NCBI GenBank assembly: GCA_963711715.1
Contig: CAVQFJ010000018.1
Location: 92,137 to 156,136 of the forward strand
Direction of reading: 5' to 3'
Source of the DNA: an uncultured Actinomycetota bacterium
Lineage (GTDB): Bacteria; Actinomycetota; Actinomycetes; Mycobacteriales; Pseudonocardiaceae
DNA length: 64,000 nucleotides
Shown: positions 5,293-63,325 of the stretch, in pieces
How positions within the stretch are numbered: position 1 is the first letter of the stretch
How the letters are laid out: every line of letters begins with the position of its first letter
Notes under the pieces: model-generated
Told to the model about the DNA's origin: nothing
Databases searched by the model: none
The model's input: only the letters and a program-made list of their open reading frames with translations
Position numbers and translations under genes: made by a program

Positions 5293-8200
5293 GCGCCGCC
5301 TCCATGATGGCTTCATTGACGTCACGGCCGTCGCGCTCGGCCGCCTCCCGGGCCTGGAGCACCCGCTTGTAGTCCTTGGGCATGACCTTGCCGAAGCGCT
5401 CGACGGCGTCGTCCCACTCGGTGAGCAGCGCACGCGCCACCGCCGAGTCGGTCTCGATGTGGTGGCGCTCGACGGTGTCGCGCAGGAAGGCGCGGTCGTC
5501 GTCGTCGAGCGGCTCGATGTCGACCATCTCCGGGTTCACGCGCTCGCCGGCCTGGCTACCGGGAGCGAGGTCGAGGACGTAGGCGACGCCGCCGGACATC
5601 CCGGCGGCGAAGTTGCGGCCGATCCCGCCGAGCACGACCACACGGCCACCGGTCATGTACTCGCAGCCGTGGTCACCGACACCCTCGACGACGGCCAGCG
5701 CGCCCGAGTTGCGCACGCAGAACCGCTCGCCGACCACGCCACGGACGAAGATCTCGCCGGACGTGGCCCCGTAGAGGATCACGTTGCCCGCGATGACGTT
5801 GTCCTCGGCCGCGAACGGCGCGGACGGGTCGGGCCGCAGCGTGAGCCGCCCGCCGGAGAGGCCCTTGCCGAAGTAGTCGTTGGTATCGCCGATCAACCGC
5901 AGGGTGATGCCGCTGGGCACGAAAGCCCCGAAGCTCTGCCCGGCCGAACCCGTGAGCGTGACGTCGATCGTGCCGTCCGGCAGCCCCTCCCCGCCCCAGC
6001 GGCGGGTGAGCTCGTAGCCGAGCATCGTGCCGACCGTGCGGTTGACGTTGCGCACCGGCAGGTCGAGCCGGACCCGGTCGCCCGAGGACAGCGCGCCCTC
6101 GCACAGCTGGATCAGCGTGTTGTCCAGCGCCTTCTCGAGCCCGTGCTCCTGGTTCCGGGTGCGGTGCCTCAGGGTGCCGGGCGGCAGCTTCGGGGTGTGG
6201 AAGATCGGTGAGAGGTCGAGCCCCTCCGTCTTCCAGTGCCGGACGGCGTCGTCGGTGTCGAGCACCTCGGCGTGCCCCACCGCCTCCTCGACGCTGCGGA
6301 AGCCGAGCGCGGCCAGGTACTCCCGCACCTCCTGGGCGATGAACTGCATGAAGGTGACGACGTACTCCGGGCGGCCGTCGAACCGCTTGCGCAGCTCGGG
6401 GTTCTGCGTGGCCACGCCCACCGGGCAGGTGTCGAGGTGGCAGACGCGCATCATGATGCAGCCGGAGACCACCAGCGGTGCGGTCGCGAATCCGAACTCC
6501 TCCGCGCCGAGCAGGGCGGCGATGACGACGTCGCGCCCGGTCTTGAGCTGGCCGTCGGTCTGCACGACGATGCGGTCGCGCAGCCCGTTGGACAACAGCG
6601 TCTGCTGCGTCTCGGCGAGTCCTAGCTCCCACGGCCCGCCCGCGTGCTTGATCGACGACAGCGGCGAGGCGCCGGTGCCGCCGTCGTGCCCGGAGATGAG
6701 CACGACGTCGGAGAACGCCTTGGCCACCCCGGCCGCGACCGTCCCGACCCCGATCTGCGATACCAGCTTCACGTGGATGCGGGCCCGCGGGTTGGCGTTC
6801 TTCAGGTCGTGGATGAGCTGCTTGATGTCCTCGATCGAGTAGATGTCGTGGTGCGGCGGCGGCGAGATCAGCCCGACCCCTGGCGTGGAGTACCGGGTCT
6901 CGGCGATCCAGGGGTAGACCTTGCTCCCGGGGAGCTGGCCGCCCTCGCCGGGCTTGGCCCCCTGCGCGATCTTGATCTGGATGTCGTCGGCGTTCACGAG
7001 GTACTCGCTGGTGACCCCGAAGCGACCCGAGGCCACCTGCTTGACGGCGCTGCGTCGGGAGTCGCCGTTGGGGTCGGGTGTGTAGCGGTCGGAGTCCTCG
7101 CCGCCCTCGCCCGTGTTGGACCGGCCGCCGAGGCGGTTCATCGCGATCGCGAGCGTCTCGTGCATCTCCTTCGAGATCGATCCGTAGGAGATCGCGCCGG
7201 TGCCGAAGCGCGTGACGATCGACTCGACCGGCTCGACCTCCTCGATCGGCACCGGCGGGCGTCCGCTGTCGGCGAAGGTGAAGAGCCCGCGCAGCGTCAT
7301 CAGCCGGTGCGACTGCTCGTCGACGGCGCGGGTGTAGGACTTGAAGACGTCGTAGCGACCCTGTCGCGTGGAGTGCTGCAGCTTGAAGACGGTGGCCGGG
7401 TTGAACAGGTGCAGCTCGCCCTCGCGCCGCCACTGGTACTCGCCACCCACATCGAGCGACCGGTGGTGGGCCCGCACCTCGTCGCGGGGGAAGGCCCGCC
7501 GGTGCCAGCGCAGCACCTCCTCGGCGAGGACGTCGAAGCCGACGCCACCCAGGCGCGACGTGGTACCGGTGAAGCAGGCCTCGATGACCTCGGGACCGAG
7601 CCCGACGGCCTCGAAGATCTGCGCGCCGGTGTAGGACGCCACGGTGGAGACGCCCATCTTCGACATCGTCTTCCGCACGCCCTTGCCCAGCGCCTTCACC
7701 AGGTTCTTGGCCGCAGTCGGTGGGTCCACTCCCGGGATGTCGCCCCGCTCGGCGAGGTCCTCGACGGTGGCCATGGCCAGGTAGGGGTTGACCGCCGCCG
7801 CGCCGTACCCGATCAGCAGCGCGATGTGGTGCACCTCGCGGGCGTCGGCGGACTCGACGATCAGTCCGACGCGCGTGCGTGTGCGCTCGCGGGTCAGATG
7901 GTGGTGCACGGCCCCGGTGAGCAGCAACGACGGGATCGACGCGCGGTTCCTGTCGATCCCACGGCTGGACAGGATGAGCAGCCGTGCGCCGTCCTCGATG
8001 GCCTGCGACACCTCGGCGCGGATCTCGTCGAGCCGACGGCGCAGCCCGCCGCCCCCTTCGGCGGCGTCGAACGTGCCGCGCACCGTGTAGGAGCTGAACC
8101 CGGGGTAGTCGCCGTCGTCGTTGACCCCGATGATCCGGGCGAGGTCGTCGTTGCCGAGCACCGGGAACGGGAGCACGATCGTGCGGCAGCTGGCGGCCGT

Positions 8201-9850
8201 GGCGTCGAGCAGGTTCTGCTCCGGTCCGAGCTGGCTCTGCAGGGAGGTGACGAGCTCCTCGCGGATGGCGTCCAGCGGTGGGTTGGTGACCTGCGCGAAC
8301 AGCTGCGTGAAGTAGTCGTAGAGCTGCCGCGGTCGTTCCGAGATCGGGGCCAGTGGCGCGTCGTTGCCCATCGAGCCGATCGGCTCGGCACCGGAGGCGG
8401 CCATCGGCTTGAGGAGGACGTTGAGCTCCTCCTCGGTGTAACCGACCGACTGCTGGCGGTGGGTGAGCGCGGCGTGGGTGGGCACCTCGCGCTCGCGGTC
8501 CGGGAGGTCGTCGAGCCGGATGAGGCCGGCGTGCAGCCAGTCGGCGTAGGGGTTCTCGGCGGCCAGCGCGTTCTTGACCTCGGCATCGTCGACGATGCGA
8601 CCGGCAGCGGTGTCGACGAGGAACATGCGGCCGGGCTCCAGCCGACCCTTGCGGATCACGGCGGACGGCTCGACGTCGAGGACGCCGACCTCGGAGGCGA
8701 GAACGACCGTGCCGTCCTCGGTGACCCACCAGCGGGCCGGGCGGAGACCGTTGCGGTCGAGCACGGCGCCGATGAGGGTGCCGTCGGTGAACGTGATGAG
8801 GGCGGGTCCGTCCCACGGCTCCATCAGCGTGGAGTGGAACTCGTAGAACGCCCGGCGCGCCGGGTCCATCTCGGCGTGGTTCTCCCACGCCTCGGGGATC
8901 ATCATGAGCACCGCGTGCGGCAGGCTCCGCCCTCCGAGGTGCAACAGCTCGAGGACCTCGTCGAACGTGGCCGAGTCGCTCGCGTCGGGTGTGACGATCG
9001 GGCTGAGCCGCTCGAGGTCGCCGGGGATCAGGTCGGACCGCAGGAGGGCCTCGCGGGCGGCCATCCAGTTCCGGTTGCCGCGGAGCGTGTTGATCTCACC
9101 GTTGTGGGCGACGTACCGGTACGGGTGCGCGAGCGGCCACGCCGGGAAGGTGTTGGTGGAGAAGCGCGAGTGGACCACGGCCAGCGCGCTGGTGACGCGC
9201 TCGTCGGCGAGATCCGGGTAGAACGCCACGACCTGCGGCTCGGCCAGCATGCCCTTGTAGACGATGGTGCGGGGCGACAGGCTCGGGAAGTAGACCCCCG
9301 TGGCGTGCTCGGCGCGCTTGCGCAGGCAGTAGGTGCGGCGCTCCAGCTCGATGCCGGAGGGCGGGTCGGCATCCGTGCCACCGGTCTCGACCCCGGCCAC
9401 GAACAGCTGGCGGAACGACGGCATCGCAGCACGCGCGGTGGGTCCGATGTCGGCGCCGTCGGGGTCGACGGGCAGCCCGCGCCACCCGAGCACGCGGAGG
9501 CCCTCCTCGGCGGCGAGCCGGTCGATCTCGGCCACCGAGGCGTCGGCGTCGGCCTGCTCGACGGGGAGGAACGCGATGCCGACGGCGTAGGCGCCGGCGG
9601 CCGGGAGGTCGAAGTCGACGACCGCGCGGAAGAACTCGTCGGGGATCTGGATGAGGATGCCCGCGCCGTCACCCGTGTTCACCTCGCTGCCCCGCGCGCC
9701 GCGGTGCTCCATGCGCAGCAACGCTGTGATCGCCTTGCGCACGATGCCGTGATCGCGGCGTCCGGTGAGGTCGGCGACCATGGCGACGCCGCAGGCGTCG
9801 TGCTCGAAGTCGGCGGCGTAGAGCCCCTTCGACGGCGGGTTGGCAGCCAA
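5285..9850 (-). CDS. gltB: glutamate synthase large subunit
   Basis: [14 protein letters not shown] amidotransferase N-terminus plus FMN and GXGXG domains. Start assigned to TTG 9850, which has AGGAGG 5 nt upstream. The longer ORF extending to 10183 has an implausible Arg/Pro-rich extension. Confidence 0.93.
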
Positions 9851-57491: not shown

Positions 57492-58391
57492 GTGCCTCGA
57501 CGCGACTCCGTCCCCCGGCTGGTGTCCGTGCTGGGCGGGGGCGGCAGGCCTCCACCTCCGGAGAGCCCGTCCACGCGGCGGGGCCGATGGGGGAGCCACG
57601 ATCCGCCGACGGTTCCTCTCGTCGTCGAGCCCCTCGTCGGTGCCTCGCCACCGGCGGGTGGGGCCCGCGGACCGGTCGGGCTGCTGCGGCGGCTGCTGCC
57701 CGTCGCCTGGCAGGGCGCGCGGATCGACCCGGGGCGGCCGGGAGCCACGGCTCTCGCGCTCGTCGCCGCGGCGGCCGCGGTCGTAGCGGCCGTCGGGGTC
57801 TGGACGGATCGGCCGCAGGCGGAGCCCGTGGGCGGGTTGCCCGCCGTCGTCGTCGGCGAGGGGCAGAGCGCCGCCGCGCCCGGCGCGGTGCCCGGTGCCT
57901 CCCCGGCCCCGCCCGCCCCTGCCGGCCCGTTGGTCGTCAGCGTGTCCGGCAAGGTCGTCCGCCCGGGGCTCGTCGAGGTGCCTGAGGGAGGCCGGGTCGC
58001 CGACGTCCTGGCGGCCGCGGGTGGTGCCCTGCCGGGCACCGACCTCACCACGCTCAACCTGGCCCGCCGGGTCTCCGACGGCGAGCAGGTCGCGGTCGGC
58101 GTGCCGGCCGCCCCCGACGCCGCTCCGGGGCCCGTGGCCGGCGCGAACCCTGGCTCGTCGGCGGGCAGCGGTACGGGCGGAGGTGCGAGCGGACCCGCCG
58201 CGAAGGTCGATCTCAACGCGGCCTCGGCCGAACAGCTCGACGGCCTCCCCGGGGTCGGTCCGGTCACCGCCCAGCGCATCCTCGAGTGGCGCACCCGGCA
58301 CGGCCGGTTCGCCCGGGTGGAGCAGCTCCGCGAGGTCGAGGGCATCGGCGAGCGACGGTTCGGGCAGCTGCGCGAGCTGGTGACGGTCTGA
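57492..58391 (+). CDS. comEA: ComEA family DNA-binding protein (helix-hairpin-helix)
   Basis: SLBB-like VVSVSGKVVRPGLVEVPEGGRVADVL and HhH VDLNAASAEQLDGLPGVGPVTAQRILEWR. The start is uncertain (see the hairpin finding). Confidence 0.85.
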   Translation: MPRRDSVPRLVSVLGGGGRPPPPESPSTRRGRWGSHDPPTVPLVVEPLVGASPPAGGARGPVGLLRRLLPVAWQGARIDPGRPGATALALVAAAAAVVAAVGVWTDRPQAEPVGGLPAVVVGEGQSAAAPGAVPGASPAPPAPAGPLVVSVSGKVVRPGLVEVPEGGRVADVLAAAGGALPGTDLTTLNLARRVSDGEQVAVGVPAAPDAAPGPVAGANPGSSAGSGTGGGASGPAAKVDLNAASAEQLDGLPGVGPVTAQRILEWRTRHGRFARVEQLREVEGIGERRFGQLRELVTV

Positions 58392-60923
58392 TGCGTTCCG
58401 CCGAGCCGGAGGAGCCCCGACGCCCACCCGACCTGAGACTGGGCCTCGCGGCCCTGTCGGCGTGGGCGGTCGTCCTGATCGGGGTCGAGCTCGGCCCGGT
58501 CGCCGGGCTCTGCGCCACCCTGCTGACCGGAGCCACGGCGATCGCCGCCGGGCGCAGAGGGTGGGCGCCGGCCGTCCTCGCCGCGACCGGATGCGCCGCC
58601 GCCGCCGGCCTGACGGTCACAGCCCACACCGCGCTCGTCGTCCACCACCCACTGCGCGCCTCCGCCGAACGCGCTGCGGCGGCCACGGTCCAGGTGGTGG
58701 TGCGTGATGATCCCCGACCGGTCCGCGGCCACCGGCCCGGCTCCCGGCCGGGCAGCGAGGCACAGTTCCTGGTACCGGCGGTGCTCACGCGGGTCGAGGT
58801 CGGCGACGACCGGTGGACGACGGGGGGCCGGGTGCTCCTGATCGTGCCCGCGGAGGGGTGGAGCGCACTGCTTCCCGGGCAGGCCGTCACGGCCGACGGT
58901 CTGTTGGCCCCGGCCGGCCGCCGCGACCTCACGGTGGCGGTGCTCCGCGTGCGGGGTCCGCCACGCGAGGTGACACCGCCGTCGTGGTGGCAGAGCGCGG
59001 CGGGCGGGCTCCGCACCGGGCTTCGGGAGGCCTCCGGTGTTCTCCCGCCCGCGCCGGCGGGGCTGCTGCCCGGGCTCGCGATCGGGGACACCGCCGGGCT
59101 CACCACGGAGGTCGAGGACGACTTCCGGACCGCGGGTCTCACCCACCTGCTCGCGGTCTCCGGCGCCAACCTCGCCATCGTGGCCGGAGCGGTGCTCGCG
59201 CTGATGCGGCTGCTGCGGACCGATCCGCGGCTCGCCGCCGTGCTGAGCGGGGCCACGATCGTGGGGTTCGTGGTGCTGGCGAGACCGTCGCCGAGCGTCG
59301 TGCGGGCCGCCGCGATGGGGGCTGTCGTGCTGCTCGCGTTGGCGCTGGGCCGCGACCGCTCCGCGCTCCCGGCGCTGGCGGTGGCCGTGCTGGTGCTGCT
59401 GCTCGTCGATCCGGCACTGGCGGTCGACCCCGGGTTCGCCTTGTCCGTTTCGGCCACCGCGGCCTTGGTGCTGCTGGCGCCCGGTTGGGCCGACGCGATG
59501 CGCCGCCGAGGGATGCCGGGCTGGGCCGCGGAGGCGCTCGCGGTCCCGGCCGCCGCCTTCCTCGTCACTGCGCCGCTGGTGGCCGGGTTGAGCGGAGCGG
59601 TCAGCCCGATCGCCGTGCTCGCCAACCTGCTCGCCGTGCCCGCGGTGGCCCCGGCCACCGTGCTCGGAGTGCTCGCCGCCGTGCTCTCGCCGCTGGGGAC
59701 GACCGTGGCCGCGGCGTGCGCCTGGGCGGCCGGGCCGGCGGTGTGGTGGCTCGTGGAGGTGGCGGACCGGGCAGCGGCGGTACCGGGGGCGGCGCTGCCG
59801 TGGCCGGCCGGGGTCCTCGGTGCGGTGTTGCTCGCGGTGCTCGTGCTCGGCCTGCTCGGGCTCGGTCGTTCGCCGCGGTGGCGGGCTGTGCTGTTCGCGG
59901 TGGTGCTCGGGACTCGGGCTCGTGGTGGTGCCCACCCGGCTCGTGACGCCGGGCTGGCCCCCCACCGGATGGGCCGTGGTGGCCTGCGACGTCGGGCAGG
60001 GTGATGCCGTCGTCCTGGCGACGGGTCGGCCCGGGTGGGCGGTCCTGGTCGACACCGGACCGGAGGACGGGCTGGTCGACGCGTGCCTCGACCGTCTCGG
60101 GGTGCAGGCGCTGGCGCTGGTCGTGCTCAGCCACCTCCACGCCGACCACGTGGGTGGCTTGGACGGCGCGCTGCGCGACCGCCCTGTGGCGGCAGTCGCC
60201 GTCGGACCGGTCCGCGAGCCGCACTGGGCGCTGCGCGAGGTGGCGCGCAGCGCGGCCACCGCCGGCGCACCGCTGCTGGCGCTGGCGGCCGGGCGCCGCC
60301 TGCAGTGGCCCGGGCTCACACTCGACGTGCTCGGCCCACAGCACCCGGATCCGTGGACCGACCCCGATGACGGCAGCGCGGTCAACGACGGCTCGCTGGT
60401 GCTGCGTGCGTCCACGGGCATCGGTACGGCGCTGCTGACCGGCGACGTCGAGCTGGCCGCCCAGGCCGACCTGCTGGCGTCCGGAGTCGACCTCCGCGCC
60501 GACGTGCTGAAGATGCCGCACCACGGCTCCCGCTACACGTCGGTGGCATTCCTCAACGCCGTCGCGCCGCGCGCCGTGCTGGTCAGCGTGGGGGCCGGGA
60601 ACCGCTACCGGCATCCCGACCCGGGCCTGCTGGGCGGGCTGGAGCGGGCCGGGATCGCCGTTCGCCGGACCGACACGGGCGGGGACGTCGCGGTCGTGGG
60701 CCGGTCGGGCGGCGCCGACGGCACGCCGACGGCGGGCGGGCCCGCTCCGGGCGGCTCCCCGGCGGACGCCGAACTCGTCACCCGGGGCGATCCGCTTCCC
60801 GCCCGTCGCCGGCGGGCGGCGCTCAGACCCCGCGGCCCTCCAGCGCCTCGCGGACGGCCCGACTGGTGGCGGGCACGGTCGCCGTGGGACCGATCTGGCC
60901 GGCGACGGCATCCAGCGTCTTGA
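58391..60923 (+). pseudogene. comEC: ComEC/Rec2 competence channel, interrupted by a +1 frameshift near 59912 (or a sequencing error)
   Basis: The N-terminal competence domain is in frame 2 (ORF 58286..60004). The metallo-beta-lactamase domain (ACDVGQGDAVVL..SHLHADHVGG..KMPHHGS) is in frame 0 (ORF 59820..60923). Removing the lone A at 59912 (CTCGGG-A-CTCGGGCTC) gives one continuous ..AVVLGLGLVVVPTRLVTPGWPP.. reading frame. Confidence 0.65.
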
Positions 60924-62109
60924 GCCCGTCGCCGGTGATCAGCAGCACGGTCTCGGCGTCGGGGTCGAGCTGTCCGCTCGCGAGGAGCTTCTCCGCGGTG
61001 GCCACCGTGACCCCGCCTGCGGTCTCGGCGAACACGCCCTCGGTGCGGGCGAGCAACCGGATCCCGTCCACGATCTCGGGGTCGCTGACGTGCGCGATCG
61101 CGCCACCCGTGCGACGTACGGCGTCGAGGACGTACGGGCCGTCGGCGGGGTTGCCGATCGCCAGCGAGCGGGCGATGGTGTCCGGGCGCACGGGCTGCAC
61201 CACGTCGTGGCCGTCCTCGAAGGCCCGGGCCACCGGCGAGCAGCCGGTCGCCTGCGCCCCGAACACGCGATAGGGAGTGGGCTCCACCAGACCGAGCGCA
61301 CCCAGCTCGAGGAAGCCCTTGTCGACCTTGGTCAGCTGCGAGCCCGAGGCCACCGGCACCACGACCTGCTCGGGGAGCCGCCAGCCGAGCTGCTCGGCCA
61401 CCTCGTAGCCCAGGGTCTTGGAGCCCTCCGCGTAGTACGGCCGGACGTTGACGTTCACGAACGCCCAGTCCTCGTGGTCCGCGGCGAGTTCCGTGGCCAA
61501 CCGGTTGACGTCGTCGTAGTTGCCGTCCACCGCGAGCAGCGTTCCGTCGTACACCGCGGTGGTGAGCACCTTCGCCTGCTCGAGCGACGACGGGATGAGC
61601 ACCACCGACTCCCAGCCCGCGCGGGCCGCGGCGGCGGCCACGGCGTTGGCGAGGTTGCCCGTGGACGGGCACGCGAGGACCGAGAACCCGAGCTCGCGGG
61701 CGGCCGCGAGCGCTACGGCCACGACGCGGTCCTTGAACGAGTGCGTCGGGTTGCCCGTGTCGTCCTTGATCCACAGGTTGCGCAGTCCCAGCGCCGCACC
61801 GAGGCGATCGGCCTTGATCAGGCGCGTGAGTCCGGGCTCGGTGTTGGGGTGCACCTGCACGTCGGAGGGCACCGGGAGGAGGTGGCGGTAGCGCCAGATG
61901 GAGTTCGGGCCGGCCTCGATCGAGGCGCGGGTGACCGAGCCGAAGTCGTAGGCCACCTCGAGCGGCCCGAAGCACTGCGGGCAGGCGAACTCGGCGGCGA
62001 GCGGGATGTGGTGGCCGCACTCACGGCACGACAGCGCTCGGGCCGGGCCGAGATCGAGGGTGGGGGACGCGGAACCGTCCCCGGACAGGGACGTCACCGT
62101 CAAGGTCAT
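60823..62109 (-). CDS. thrC: threonine synthase family PLP enzyme with an N-terminal zinc ribbon
   Basis: CRECGHHIPLAAEFACPQCFG (CxxC..CxxC), PLP lysine in NPTHSFKDRVV, 428 aa. ATG 62109 is preceded by GAGGAG. The longer ORF to 62505 is leader sequence. Confidence 0.88.
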   Translation of the reverse strand: MTLTVTSLSGDGSASPTLDLGPARALSCRECGHHIPLAAEFACPQCFGPLEVAYDFGSVTRASIEAGPNSIWRYRHLLPVPSDVQVHPNTEPGLTRLIKADRLGAALGLRNLWIKDDTGNPTHSFKDRVVAVALAAARELGFSVLACPSTGNLANAVAAAAARAGWESVVLIPSSLEQAKVLTTAVYDGTLLAVDGNYDDVNRLATELAADHEDWAFVNVNVRPYYAEGSKTLGYEVAEQLGWRLPEQVVVPVASGSQLTKVDKGFLELGALGLVEPTPYRVFGAQATGCSPVARAFEDGHDVVQPVRPDTIARSLAIGNPADGPYVLDAVRRTGGAIAHVSDPEIVDGIRLLARTEGVFAETAGGVTVATAEKLLASGQLDPDAETVLLITGDGLKTLDAVAGQIGPTATVPATSRAVREALEGRGV

Positions 62110-62115
62110 CGAAGT

Positions 62116-62232
62116 CTCCTCATCTTCCCCGCGTTGTGCGGGTCGGAATTGGCACCGTGGTCGGGCGCGTGACGCGCGCTCCGCCGGTTGCCGGGGCTTC
62201 AACGGGCCGTTCCCTCTGCCCCTCTGGATGAG
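62116..62232 (-). promoter_or_regulatory. SAM-I (S-box) riboswitch
   Basis: The minus-strand RNA reads CUCAUCCAGAGGGGCAGAGGGAACGGCCCGUUGAAGCCCCGGCAACC..CCACGGUGCCAAUUCCGACCCGCACAACGCGGGGAAGAUGAGGAG. It matches the conserved SAM-I core (..AUC.AGAG.GGC.GAGGGA..GGCCC..UGAA.CC.GGCAACC..GGUGC.AAUUCC..AGAU.AG). The 3' strand of P1 overlaps the SD. Confidence 0.9.
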
Positions 62233-62368
62233 CCATGTGCAGTTGTGGCCGCGGCACCGGGTGCGGCAGCAATGGTCACGGTACGGGACGCGGGGACGAA
62301 CGCCCACGCCGTCCCGTGATCTGGGAGCCGGCTCACGTCCTGTCGGTGCGGTGCGCGAGCATGGATCC

Positions 62369-63325
62369 ATGGGTCCCGCGCCGGTCCGTCTCCTCCTCGG
62401 CGAGGAGGAGCTGCTGGTGGAGCGCGCGGTCGACGAGATCGTGGCCGAGGTCCGCACCACAGACCCCACCGCCGAGGTGCGCCGCATCCGGGCCGGCGAG
62501 CTCACCCCGGTCGACCTGGCCGAGAGCCTCAGCCCGTCGCTGTTCGCCGACGGGCGCGTGATCGTGCTGCAGGCCGCTCACGAGGTGGGCAAGGACCTCG
62601 CCGCGGCCGTCGTCGAGCAGGCGGCGGACCCGGCGGAGGGCGTCGTGCTCGTCGTCGTCCATGCGGGGGGTGCTCGCAACAAGGCCCTGGCCGACGCGCT
62701 GCGCCGCGGCGGAGCAGTCGTCACCACCTGCGACAAGATCACCCGGTACGAGGAGCGGGCCGACTTCGTCCGGGCCGAGGTACGCAGGGCAGGGGGTCGC
62801 ATCGCCCCGGCCGCCGTCGGGGTGCTCATCGAAGCCGTCGGCTCGGAGCTGCGGGAACTGGCGGCCGCCACCAACCAGCTGGTCGCCGACACCGGGGGCA
62901 CGGTCGACGAGCAGGCGGTCCGGCGCTACCACCGCGGCCGGGCGGAGGCATCAGGGTTCGCCGTGGCCGACAAGGTGGTCGCCGGTGACCGGGTGGGCGC
63001 GCTGGAGGCGCTGCGCTGGGCACAACTGCTCGGGGTGCCGTCGGTGCTGGTGGCCGACGCGCTCGCCGACGCGGTGCGCACGCTGGCGAAGGTCGGTTCC
63101 GCGGGCCGCGGCGATCCGCACCGCCTGGCCGGCGCTCTCGGCATGCCGCCCTGGAAGGTCCGCAAGGCGCAGCAGCAAGTGAGGTCCTGGCGCCCGGAGG
63201 GCCTGGCCGACGCGTTCGCCGCGGCGGCCGAGGTGAACGCCGACGTCAAGGGCGCGGCCGCCGACCCGGGCTACGCCCTGGAATGCGCGGTGCTGCGCAT
63301 GTGCGCGGCCCGCGAGCCGCGGTGA
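62369..63325 (+). CDS. holA: DNA polymerase III subunit delta
   Basis: MGPAPVRLLLGEEELLVERAVDEIV..SLFADGRVIVLQ. Conserved position before rpsT. Confidence 0.88.
   Translation: MGPAPVRLLLGEEELLVERAVDEIVAEVRTTDPTAEVRRIRAGELTPVDLAESLSPSLFADGRVIVLQAAHEVGKDLAAAVVEQAADPAEGVVLVVVHAGGARNKALADALRRGGAVVTTCDKITRYEERADFVRAEVRRAGGRIAPAAVGVLIEAVGSELRELAAATNQLVADTGGTVDEQAVRRYHRGRAEASGFAVADKVVAGDRVGALEALRWAQLLGVPSVLVADALADAVRTLAKVGSAGRGDPHRLAGALGMPPWKVRKAQQQVRSWRPEGLADAFAAAAEVNADVKGAAADPGYALECAVLRMCAAREPR

Follow-up and report, generated by a model that had tools for sequence, protein, structure and literature searches.

Introduction

In Streptomyces albulus, O-phosphohomoserine is converted to homocysteine by a thiocarboxylate route comprising MetO, Mec, MoeZ and MetM, as the work of Hasebe, Adachi, Maruyama and Hamano (2024, Appl Environ Microbiol 90:e01247-24) is summarized in GapMind 2026 and in PMC12172450. 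The GapMind 2026 summary adds that MetM is "often misannotated" as threonine synthase (ThrC), and a 2025 paper places an S-adenosylmethionine (SAM) riboswitch upstream of S. albulus metM; the association of riboswitch and metM is already published. Here, we analyze a locus of this kind in a stretch of 64,000 nucleotides from an uncultured bacterium of the Pseudonocardiaceae (assembly GCA_963711715.1, contig CAVQFJ010000018.1, positions 92,137 to 156,136), referred to below as the window. In it, a SAM-I riboswitch lies directly upstream of a gene encoding a pyridoxal 5'-phosphate (PLP)-dependent protein of the ThrC family, which we call the metM-like gene. A first-pass annotation of the window had dated the report on MetM and MetO by Hasebe and colleagues to about 2021; the paper is from 2024.

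The S. albulus riboswitch-metM-metO unit is the closest described system. There, too, a PLP enzyme homologous to ThrC, distinct from the housekeeping ThrC, stands behind a SAM riboswitch, and the same reaction, from O-phosphohomoserine to homocysteine, is predicted for the window enzyme. However, metM of S. albulus is followed by metO, whereas the loci of Pseudonocardiaceae, Sporichthyaceae and Nakamurella are without it. The Mec-CysO-CysM route of Mycobacterium tuberculosis, which makes cysteine from O-phosphoserine, belongs to the same class of chemistry, in that a PLP enzyme of fold type II exchanges a phosphate ester for sulfur from a ThiS/MoaD-like protein thiocarboxylate; CysM is an enzyme of the CysK/CysM type acting on O-phosphoserine, whereas the window enzyme is of the ThrC type. 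Canonical class I ThrCs (2d1f, 1uim, 6cgq and 2zsj) share with the window enzyme the fold, the PLP lysine motif and the substrate O-phosphohomoserine, the last being a prediction for the window enzyme, which differs from them in an additional N-terminal zinc ribbon of 65 amino acids, in replaced motifs, in predicted SAM regulation and in genomic context. In archaeal cysteate synthase (TIGR03844) and Alistipes CapA2 (9k3c), ThrC-like scaffolds likewise serve to attach a sulfur nucleophile to phospho-amino acids, but these enzymes convert O-phosphoserine and sulfite to cysteate and have low similarity to the window protein. With respect to the RNA, the Bacillus subtilis yitJ-type S-box has the same aptamer class and OFF logic on a methionine-branch gene. 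The S-boxes of Firmicutes use a terminator/antiterminator platform, whereas the window leader has no separate platform and its P1 helix holds half of the Shine-Dalgarno (SD) sequence. In this respect it resembles SAM-II and SAM-III/SMK, in which the ribosome-binding site lies within or abuts the ligand-stabilized structure.

We consider it likely that the window leader is a SAM-I OFF switch acting on translation initiation of a MetM ortholog, which would form homocysteine from O-phosphohomoserine with sulfur from a carrier supplied in trans or from sulfide.

A SAM-I riboswitch upstream of the metM-like gene

We scanned the whole window with cmscan and found that RF00162 (SAM-I) was the sole match above the gathering score. 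The match, on the minus strand, scored 76.5 bits (gathering score, 44.4; E 3.5e-16) and covered model positions 1-108 of 108 without truncation; the P3 insert of the aptamer is longer than usual. Thus, by sequence and fold, the leader is confirmed as a SAM-I riboswitch, and the SAM-I core described in the first-pass annotation withstood its check against RF00162. When the sequence was reread, the coordinates given there for the P1 strands, the SD sequence, the spacer and the start codon all proved correct (Table 1). The spacer between the SD sequence and AUG is ACUUCG, 6 nt in length, and the distance from the end of the aptamer to AUG is only 7 nt. A consensus scan of 60600-62450 revealed no terminator-like site, which bears out the earlier claim that there is no terminator in the gap. 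The same scan gave no match to the sigma-70 consensus, a result that is uninformative about promoters in an actinobacterium at 73% G+C.

Table 1. Positions of the riboswitch, the metM-like gene and the adjoining intergenic region in the window
Feature	Coordinates	Strand	Basis or remark
metM-like coding sequence, 428 amino acids, PLP-dependent ThrC family	60823-62109, stop codon included	-	PF00291, TIGR00260
Codon of Lys126 in SFKDR, predicted PLP Schiff-base lysine	61732-61734	-	Aligned to solved threonine synthases
Zinc-ribbon motif C28-x2-C31-x11-C43-x2-C46	61972-62028	-	Residues 28-46, N-terminal
Start codon AUG of the metM-like gene	62109-62107	-	Translation; N-terminus MTLT... kept in Pseudonocardia orthologs
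SD sequence GAGGAG	62121-62116	-	6 nt before AUG; from sequence
P1 3' strand GAUGAG	62124-62119	-	Last three bases shared with the start of the SD sequence
P1 5' strand CUCAUC	62232-62227	-	From sequence; invariant in 12 aligned leaders
SAM-I riboswitch aptamer, P1-P4 four-way junction	62117-62234	-	RF00162 and consensus fold
Divergent intergenic region between riboswitch and holA, 134 nt, presumed promoter region	62235-62368	.	Inferred from gene arrangement

To describe the conservation of the leader, we used 160 loci encoding relatives of the window protein, taken from species-representative actinobacterial genomes. With the window leader as an nhmmer query, a similar leader was found directly upstream of the ortholog in every one of them (160/160). 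In Rfam, RF00162 was matched at the gathering threshold in all 11 orthologous loci, from 11 genera, with scores of 59.8-85.4 bits, while a cysO locus used as a control gave no RF00162 match at this threshold. The consensus fold of 12 orthologous leaders (RNAalifold) recovered P1, P2, P3 and P4, with compensatory changes at 4 pairs in P2 and P4 and an invariant core. In these 12 leaders P1 is an invariant 6-bp helix, CUCAUC/GAUGAG. In the parsed leaders, the 3' strand of P1 is nearly invariant as AGAUGAG[G/A][G/A] (this pattern had no match in 17 of the 160 leaders) and is followed by a purine-rich SD sequence, and the distance from the G of GAUGAG to the start codon is 13-25 nt in all lineages, apart from three exceptional loci in which the start is probably misassigned. 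In several lineages, the best SD sequence (AAGGA or AAGGAGG) is located just 3' of P1, outside the helix. No lineage has space for a terminator/antiterminator platform. Judged from the aligned leaders, the ribosome-binding site lies in P1 or directly beside it across lineages, and the overlap of P1 and the SD sequence pointed out in the first-pass annotation is as described there and is conserved among the parsed orthologous leaders. The invariance of P1 across orders is unusual for SAM-I and fits a double constraint on these bases, as helix and as SD sequence.

Folding models were computed with ViennaRNA. When P1 was enforced in the ensemble of the window leader, the first 3 nt of the SD sequence were fully paired. 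Among 118 unique leaders, P1 was the minimum-energy state in 19, and the median cost of enforcing it was 2.85 kcal/mol, as expected of a helix that needs the energy of its ligand.

Two further features of the window leader were considered. The region of the start codon, GAUGAC (62105-62110), nearly repeats the 3' strand of P1, but a helix formed with the start codon was rejected as a conserved feature, being present in the minimum-energy structure of only 27 of the 118 leaders. In addition, an AUG within the P1 3' strand (62120-62122) opens a 5-codon open reading frame (ORF), MRRLR, the UGA of which overlaps the main AUG (AUGA). A conserved upstream ORF starting from this AUG was also rejected, because both its reading frame and its spacing from the main AUG differ between loci.

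The riboswitch-linked protein differs from the housekeeping threonine synthase

The metM-like protein contains a PALP domain (PF00291, 231.7 bits), and the closest database proteins come from Pseudonocardia, with 83-91% identity. On these identities and its 73% G+C, the window is assigned to a species of Pseudonocardia; among sequencing runs, partial matches to it came from metagenomes only. The G+C content at third codon positions of its gene is 0.91. The first-pass annotation had spoken of a 428-aa zinc-ribbon ThrC-like protein, which holds in both respects: the CxxC-x11-CxxC motif is present at residues 28-46, and TIGR00260 is matched. The zinc-ribbon segment is an N-terminal extension that is missing from canonical ThrCs of about 350 amino acids, and the ThrCs in the PDB align with the window protein only from residue ~65. 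In sequence comparison with solved structures, class I threonine synthases ranked nearest (158-172 bits). Against B. subtilis ThrC the protein shows 34% identity and against the canonical P. nigra enzyme 38%, and no family member exceeds 37% against M. tuberculosis ThrC; a 2026 preprint gives 33% between B. subtilis ThrC and MetM.

The SFK126DR motif is invariant within the metM-like family, but the signatures of ThrC around and beyond it are exchanged at family-invariant positions, with NPTH for NPTG, GNLANA for GNTSAS, NVRPYY for SVNPxR and ASGSQ for GNAGN. In full, the motifs NPTGSFKDRG, STGNTSAS, SVNPxRxEGQKT and PVGNAGN of ThrC correspond to NPTHSFKDRVV, STGNLANA, NVRPYYAEGSKT and PVASGSQ throughout the family. 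An AlphaFold (AF2) model of the window protein has moderate confidence, with a mean predicted local distance difference test (pLDDT) of 74.8; the zinc-ribbon segment forms beta strands at residues 23-28 and 50-54 with pLDDT ~83-86. The model resembles class I threonine synthases in fold, with a template modeling (TM) score of ~0.8. A full-length match was also obtained to CapA2 (9k3c), a member of the ThrC family that takes part in sulfonolipid synthesis, with a TM score of 0.75 and 20% identity.

Searching with the aligned sequences of four solved ThrCs yielded loci of the canonical gene from Pseudonocardiaceae. In P. nigra, argS, hom (444 aa), thrC (358 aa) and thrB (300 aa) follow one another. 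On the chromosome of P. dioxanivorans CB1190 (CP002593.1), argS-lysA-hom-thrC-thrB-rho occupies 1,750,510-1,759,598, and a riboswitch-linked gene of 421 aa lies within 2,137,417-2,150,682. Both the canonical ThrC and the riboswitch-linked protein are present in P. hispaniensis, P. sp. N23 and P. sp. NPDC049635, and P. benzenivorans/dioxanivorans likewise appear in the match lists for both proteins. The hom-thrC-thrB operon is thus occupied by a different gene of 358-362 aa, and the metM-like gene stands outside it. The first-pass annotation had left room for the riboswitch-linked gene being the only thrC of its genome; within the genus this is not the case, as CB1190 carries both genes. Taken together, sequence comparisons support the conclusion that the product of the window gene is not the housekeeping threonine synthase.

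Orthologs linked to a sulfur carrier gene

At 47 orthologous loci, we observed a carrier ORF of 91-96 aa, ending in IPAVAGG, at a distance of -3 to ~+75 nt downstream of the metM-like gene. These MetO-linked orthologs are 66-73% identical to the window protein and come from Actinomadura, Actinoallomurus, Thermomonospora-like lineages, Streptosporangium, Microbispora, Nonomuraea, Streptomonospora, Kribbella, Nocardioides, Jiangellaceae and others, so that the full layout of riboswitch, enzyme and carrier occurs in at least 5 other actinobacterial orders. The carrier ORF of Thermomonospora is assigned to ThiS (PF02597) in precomputed Pfam annotation. With a MetO-like protein as the query, the nearest solved relatives were M. 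tuberculosis CysO (3dwg_C, 108.9 bits) and then a ThiS/MoaD protein of Amycolatopsis orientalis (4n6e_B, 96.7 bits). Together with the 38% identity to Pseudonocardia ThrC and the separate thrC operon, the linkage of these orthologs to a carrier gene sustains the earlier suggestion that the window protein is MetM-like. In Streptomyces coelicolor, a 2008 listing includes SCO4293 (putative thrC) and SCO4294 (conserved hypothetical) as co-regulated with the genes of sulfate assimilation.

To place the window protein within the family, a neighbor-joining tree was built and rooted on canonical ThrCs. In this tree, the MetO-linked lineages are basal and paraphyletic, while the MetO-less proteins of Pseudonocardiales form one nested clade. 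By this topology, linkage to metO is ancestral, and metO was lost or relocated in Pseudonocardiales; Sporichthyaceae- and Nakamurella-like lineages represent a separate loss of the linkage. A total of 169 invariant positions, including the whole active-site signature, are common to the MetO-linked and MetO-less groups. Consistent differences between the groups were found at only five positions, all of them conservative (A38/G, T118/S, R314/K, I391/N and V419/F), and the alignment gives no sign of a changed catalytic function.

In Nonomuraea gerenzanensis there is an adjacent metM-metO pair, and three CysO-like places were found on the chromosome, indicating that a dedicated MetO coexists there with other CysO-like carrier genes. 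The record in question (NZ_LT559118.1, of which 11805932-11814204 was examined) is filed as a plasmid in PLSDB, but at 11.85 Mb it is evidently the chromosome; the entire record carries only 10 annotated features.

A cold-shock protein gene comes next after the metM(-metO) unit in several lineages. In Thermomonospora, metM-metO and the cold-shock gene are followed by a gene for a Cpn60 (GroEL-family) chaperonin (locus 6296-9386), and the synteny with the cold-shock gene persists in Sporichthyaceae-like loci that have no metO. We take SCO4295 and SCO4296 of S. coelicolor to be the cold-shock gene and groEL2, which would match the order in Thermomonospora.

Proposed mechanism of regulation

In the model that we favor, binding of SAM would close the 6-bp P1 helix (CUCAUC/GAUGAG). 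The closed helix would pair the first half of the SD sequence and set the aptamer 7 nt from AUG, inside the footprint of the 30S subunit; with P1 closed over the SD sequence and the aptamer within this footprint, the ribosome could not load. In the absence of SAM, P1 would not be the preferred fold and the SD sequence would be free. O-phosphohomoserine would be supplied by the ThrB of the separate hom-thrC-thrB operon, and the MetM-like enzyme would exchange its phosphate for sulfur, giving homocysteine. Homocysteine would then be converted to methionine and SAM, and SAM would close the feedback loop. SAM-dependent repression of translation is the mechanism that we infer as the best supported.

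Alternative explanations

Some observations weigh against this model, and they are taken up in this section and the next together with the alternatives that they favor. First, the assignment to MetM is made from architecture and from relatives in other orders: the metM of Streptomyces was not among the matches listed in a genome scan (with an alignment led by a Sporichthyaceae protein), a 20-member profile search and a tblastn search of PLSDB. Second, the evidence for a canonical thrC and for cysO comes from relatives of the organism. Third, the window protein carries the marks of a threonine synthase. Its score with the thrC equivalog TIGR00260, 275.9, exceeds the NCBI cut-off of 167.1, the nearest solved structures by both sequence and fold are threonine synthases, and the database names are threonine synthase in every source. 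Moreover, a cyanobacterial homolog that is 51.6% identical to MetM acted mainly as a threonine synthase and deaminase in vitro, which illustrates that family membership alone does not fix activity.

These marks would be explained if the gene encoded a genuine second threonine synthase, repressed by SAM to balance the threonine and methionine branches. We regard this as very unlikely. Its regulatory logic would be inverted, since high SAM should favor threonine synthesis, and a canonical thrC is already present in the hom-thrC-thrB operon of Pseudonocardia relatives. In addition, the protein has only 38% identity to the canonical ThrC, its signature residues are replaced family-wide, its orthologs are in operons with a sulfur carrier, and its score with NF006050, the best-matching specific equivalog, is 278.4, below the cut-off of 303.

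The resemblance to enzymes of other pathways raises the question of a different replacement of phosphate by sulfur on a phospho-amino acid, either the formation of cystathionine from O-phosphohomoserine and cysteine, as in plants, or a reaction like that of cysteate synthase or CapA. Control by SAM says only that the product feeds the network of methionine, cysteine and SAM, the structural model of the window protein matches CapA2 over its full length, and a match to TIGR03844 exists; however, the latter is weak, at 72 bits against a cut-off of 325, and identity to CapA2 is only 20%. The linkage of the orthologs to a thiocarboxylate carrier points instead to sulfide delivered by a carrier, as in MetM, and a reaction of this other kind is most improbable.

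With regard to the level of control, P1 of the window leader holds only 3 of the 6 SD bases. Furthermore, pairing of the P1 5' strand (62227-62232) with the bases around the start codon is isoenergetic with P1 in the window leader (-63.6 vs -63.5 kcal/mol for the two competing pairings), so that the ON state is not cleanly predicted. These points, together with the position of the best SD sequence just 3' of P1 in several lineages and a folding model that lacks a clean contrast between ON and OFF states, are what would be expected if the main effect of the riboswitch were on transcription or on the stability of the RNA, for instance by Rho-dependent termination or by degradation after a block of translation. 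But an intrinsic terminator and the space for one are both missing, and the end of the aptamer at 7 nt from AUG is well inside the 30S footprint. Such effects would be secondary to translational occlusion rather than an alternative to it, and we consider it unlikely that they are the main level of control, while Rho-dependent or decay effects may follow from the translational block.

Sulfur donor in Pseudonocardiaceae

If the metM-like gene encodes a MetM ortholog, the absence of its carrier requires explanation. When five MetO sequences were used as tblastn queries, no ThiS/MoaD/CysO-like ORF was found anywhere in the 64-kb window, where only chance matches were returned (E of 0.5 or more), in agreement with the statement of the first-pass annotation that no carrier gene stands next to the metM-like gene. 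Likewise, metO was absent from the 6 kb on either side of all Pseudonocardiales loci (~80).

A related carrier is nevertheless retained in the family. With the A. orientalis carrier as the query, 80 loci of Pseudonocardiaceae were returned; in an example, mec (JAMM, 135 aa), cysO (92 aa, ending in AGGAR) and cysM (316 aa) are found together. Unlike the metM-like loci, these cysO loci are without a SAM riboswitch, with riboswitch-like sequence in 0 of 80. In ten genomes of Pseudonocardiaceae, a monocistronic metM-like locus coexists with a mec-cysO-cysM locus located far from it, the two being 1.1 Mb apart on one chromosome in Amycolatopsis sp. GA6-003, which indicates that a shared CysO is available in Pseudonocardiaceae. 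However, the genus Pseudonocardia itself had no cysO locus among the 80 returned. The sulfur carriers of A. orientalis, which a single MoeZ activates, can reportedly be co-opted by a non-cognate enzyme, and this would make the sharing of a carrier plausible. The CysO encoded on contig JARAWT010000003.1, which is labeled Streptomyces sp. MN03-5084-2B, shares 96% identity with the A. orientalis protein, and its locus is ranked with those of Amycolatopsis; a wrong organism label or contamination may account for this.

The zinc ribbon shows a related pattern. Its four cysteines are kept in 47/47 MetO-linked orthologs, but they are replaced (mostly by S, E, S and D) in 27 proteins of one MetO-less clade, comprising Amycolatopsis, Saccharopolyspora, Prauserella, Thermocrispum, Actinopolyspora and Actinoalloteichus, in which the rest of the protein is conserved. 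This may hint at a relation between the zinc ribbon and docking of the carrier, although a single evolutionary event makes for a weak correlation.

One explanation for these data is that the enzyme of Pseudonocardiaceae is a carrier-independent O-phosphohomoserine sulfhydrylase, which would use free sulfide directly and make metO dispensable, leaving the logic of the riboswitch unchanged. The missing metO and the loss of the zinc-ribbon cysteines solely inside the MetO-less clade (27 proteins, against 0 of 47 MetO-linked ones) are in line with this, and an in-vitro assay of the MetM type is mentioned in the literature with Na2S as the sulfur source. By contrast, the identity of the active site in the MetO-linked and MetO-less groups and the conservative nature of the five differences argue against an altered enzyme, CysO is retained with Mec and CysM in Pseudonocardiaceae, and an unlinked metO paralog is possible. 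On balance we find a carrier-independent sulfhydrylase rather unlikely.

For a MetM ortholog, the sulfur donor is likely to be a carrier encoded elsewhere, with CysO as the first candidate, or free sulfide, and an unlinked MetO paralog is a possible source. We tentatively suggest, with slightly more doubt than confidence, that the MetM pathway operates without a dedicated MetO in Pseudonocardiaceae and in Sporichthyaceae- and Nakamurella-like lineages, that it runs there on CysO or sulfide, and that the decay of the zinc ribbon in the Amycolatopsis/Saccharopolyspora clade marks this rewiring.

Gene neighborhood

As in other Pseudonocardiaceae, the metM-like gene is monocistronic and located between a convergent comEC-like gene and a divergent holA. 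The genes degV, comEA and the comEC-like gene converge on its 3' end, and holA starts at 62369 on the plus strand, diverging from the riboswitch; the same comEC/holA arrangement is found in P. dioxanivorans CB1190. The comEC-like gene is present in two frames, 58286-60004 (+) and 59820-60923 (+), which overlap by ~185 nt, and the split may stem from a frameshift, from pseudogene formation or from an error in sequencing; its counterpart in Saccharopolyspora spinosa is in one piece of 801 aa. The second of these ORFs extends ~100 nt past the stop codon of the metM-like gene (60823).

Implications

Relative to the published riboswitch-metM association, the additions made here are modest: the occurrence of the module in at least 150 actinobacterial species, an invariant P1 that is also half of the SD sequence, and a whole family in which the module is a single gene without a carrier. 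The module therefore reaches several actinobacterial orders beyond Streptomyces. As a helix of 6 bp that doubles as half of an SD sequence, P1 would make this a small SAM-I switch on translation that lends itself to mechanistic work.

For annotation, the label of threonine synthase most likely conceals an enzyme of the methionine branch, and metabolic reconstructions of Pseudonocardia, Amycolatopsis, Saccharopolyspora and their relatives, important antibiotic producers included, would miss the route from O-phosphohomoserine to homocysteine. The carrier-less family also provides a natural experiment on whether MetM depends on a MetO of its own, can borrow CysO or can use sulfide. If the loss of the carrier is read correctly, the riboswitch would control a single-gene, minimal O-phosphohomoserine route to methionine, and if CysO takes the place of MetO, one thiocarboxylate carrier would feed the synthesis of both cysteine and methionine.

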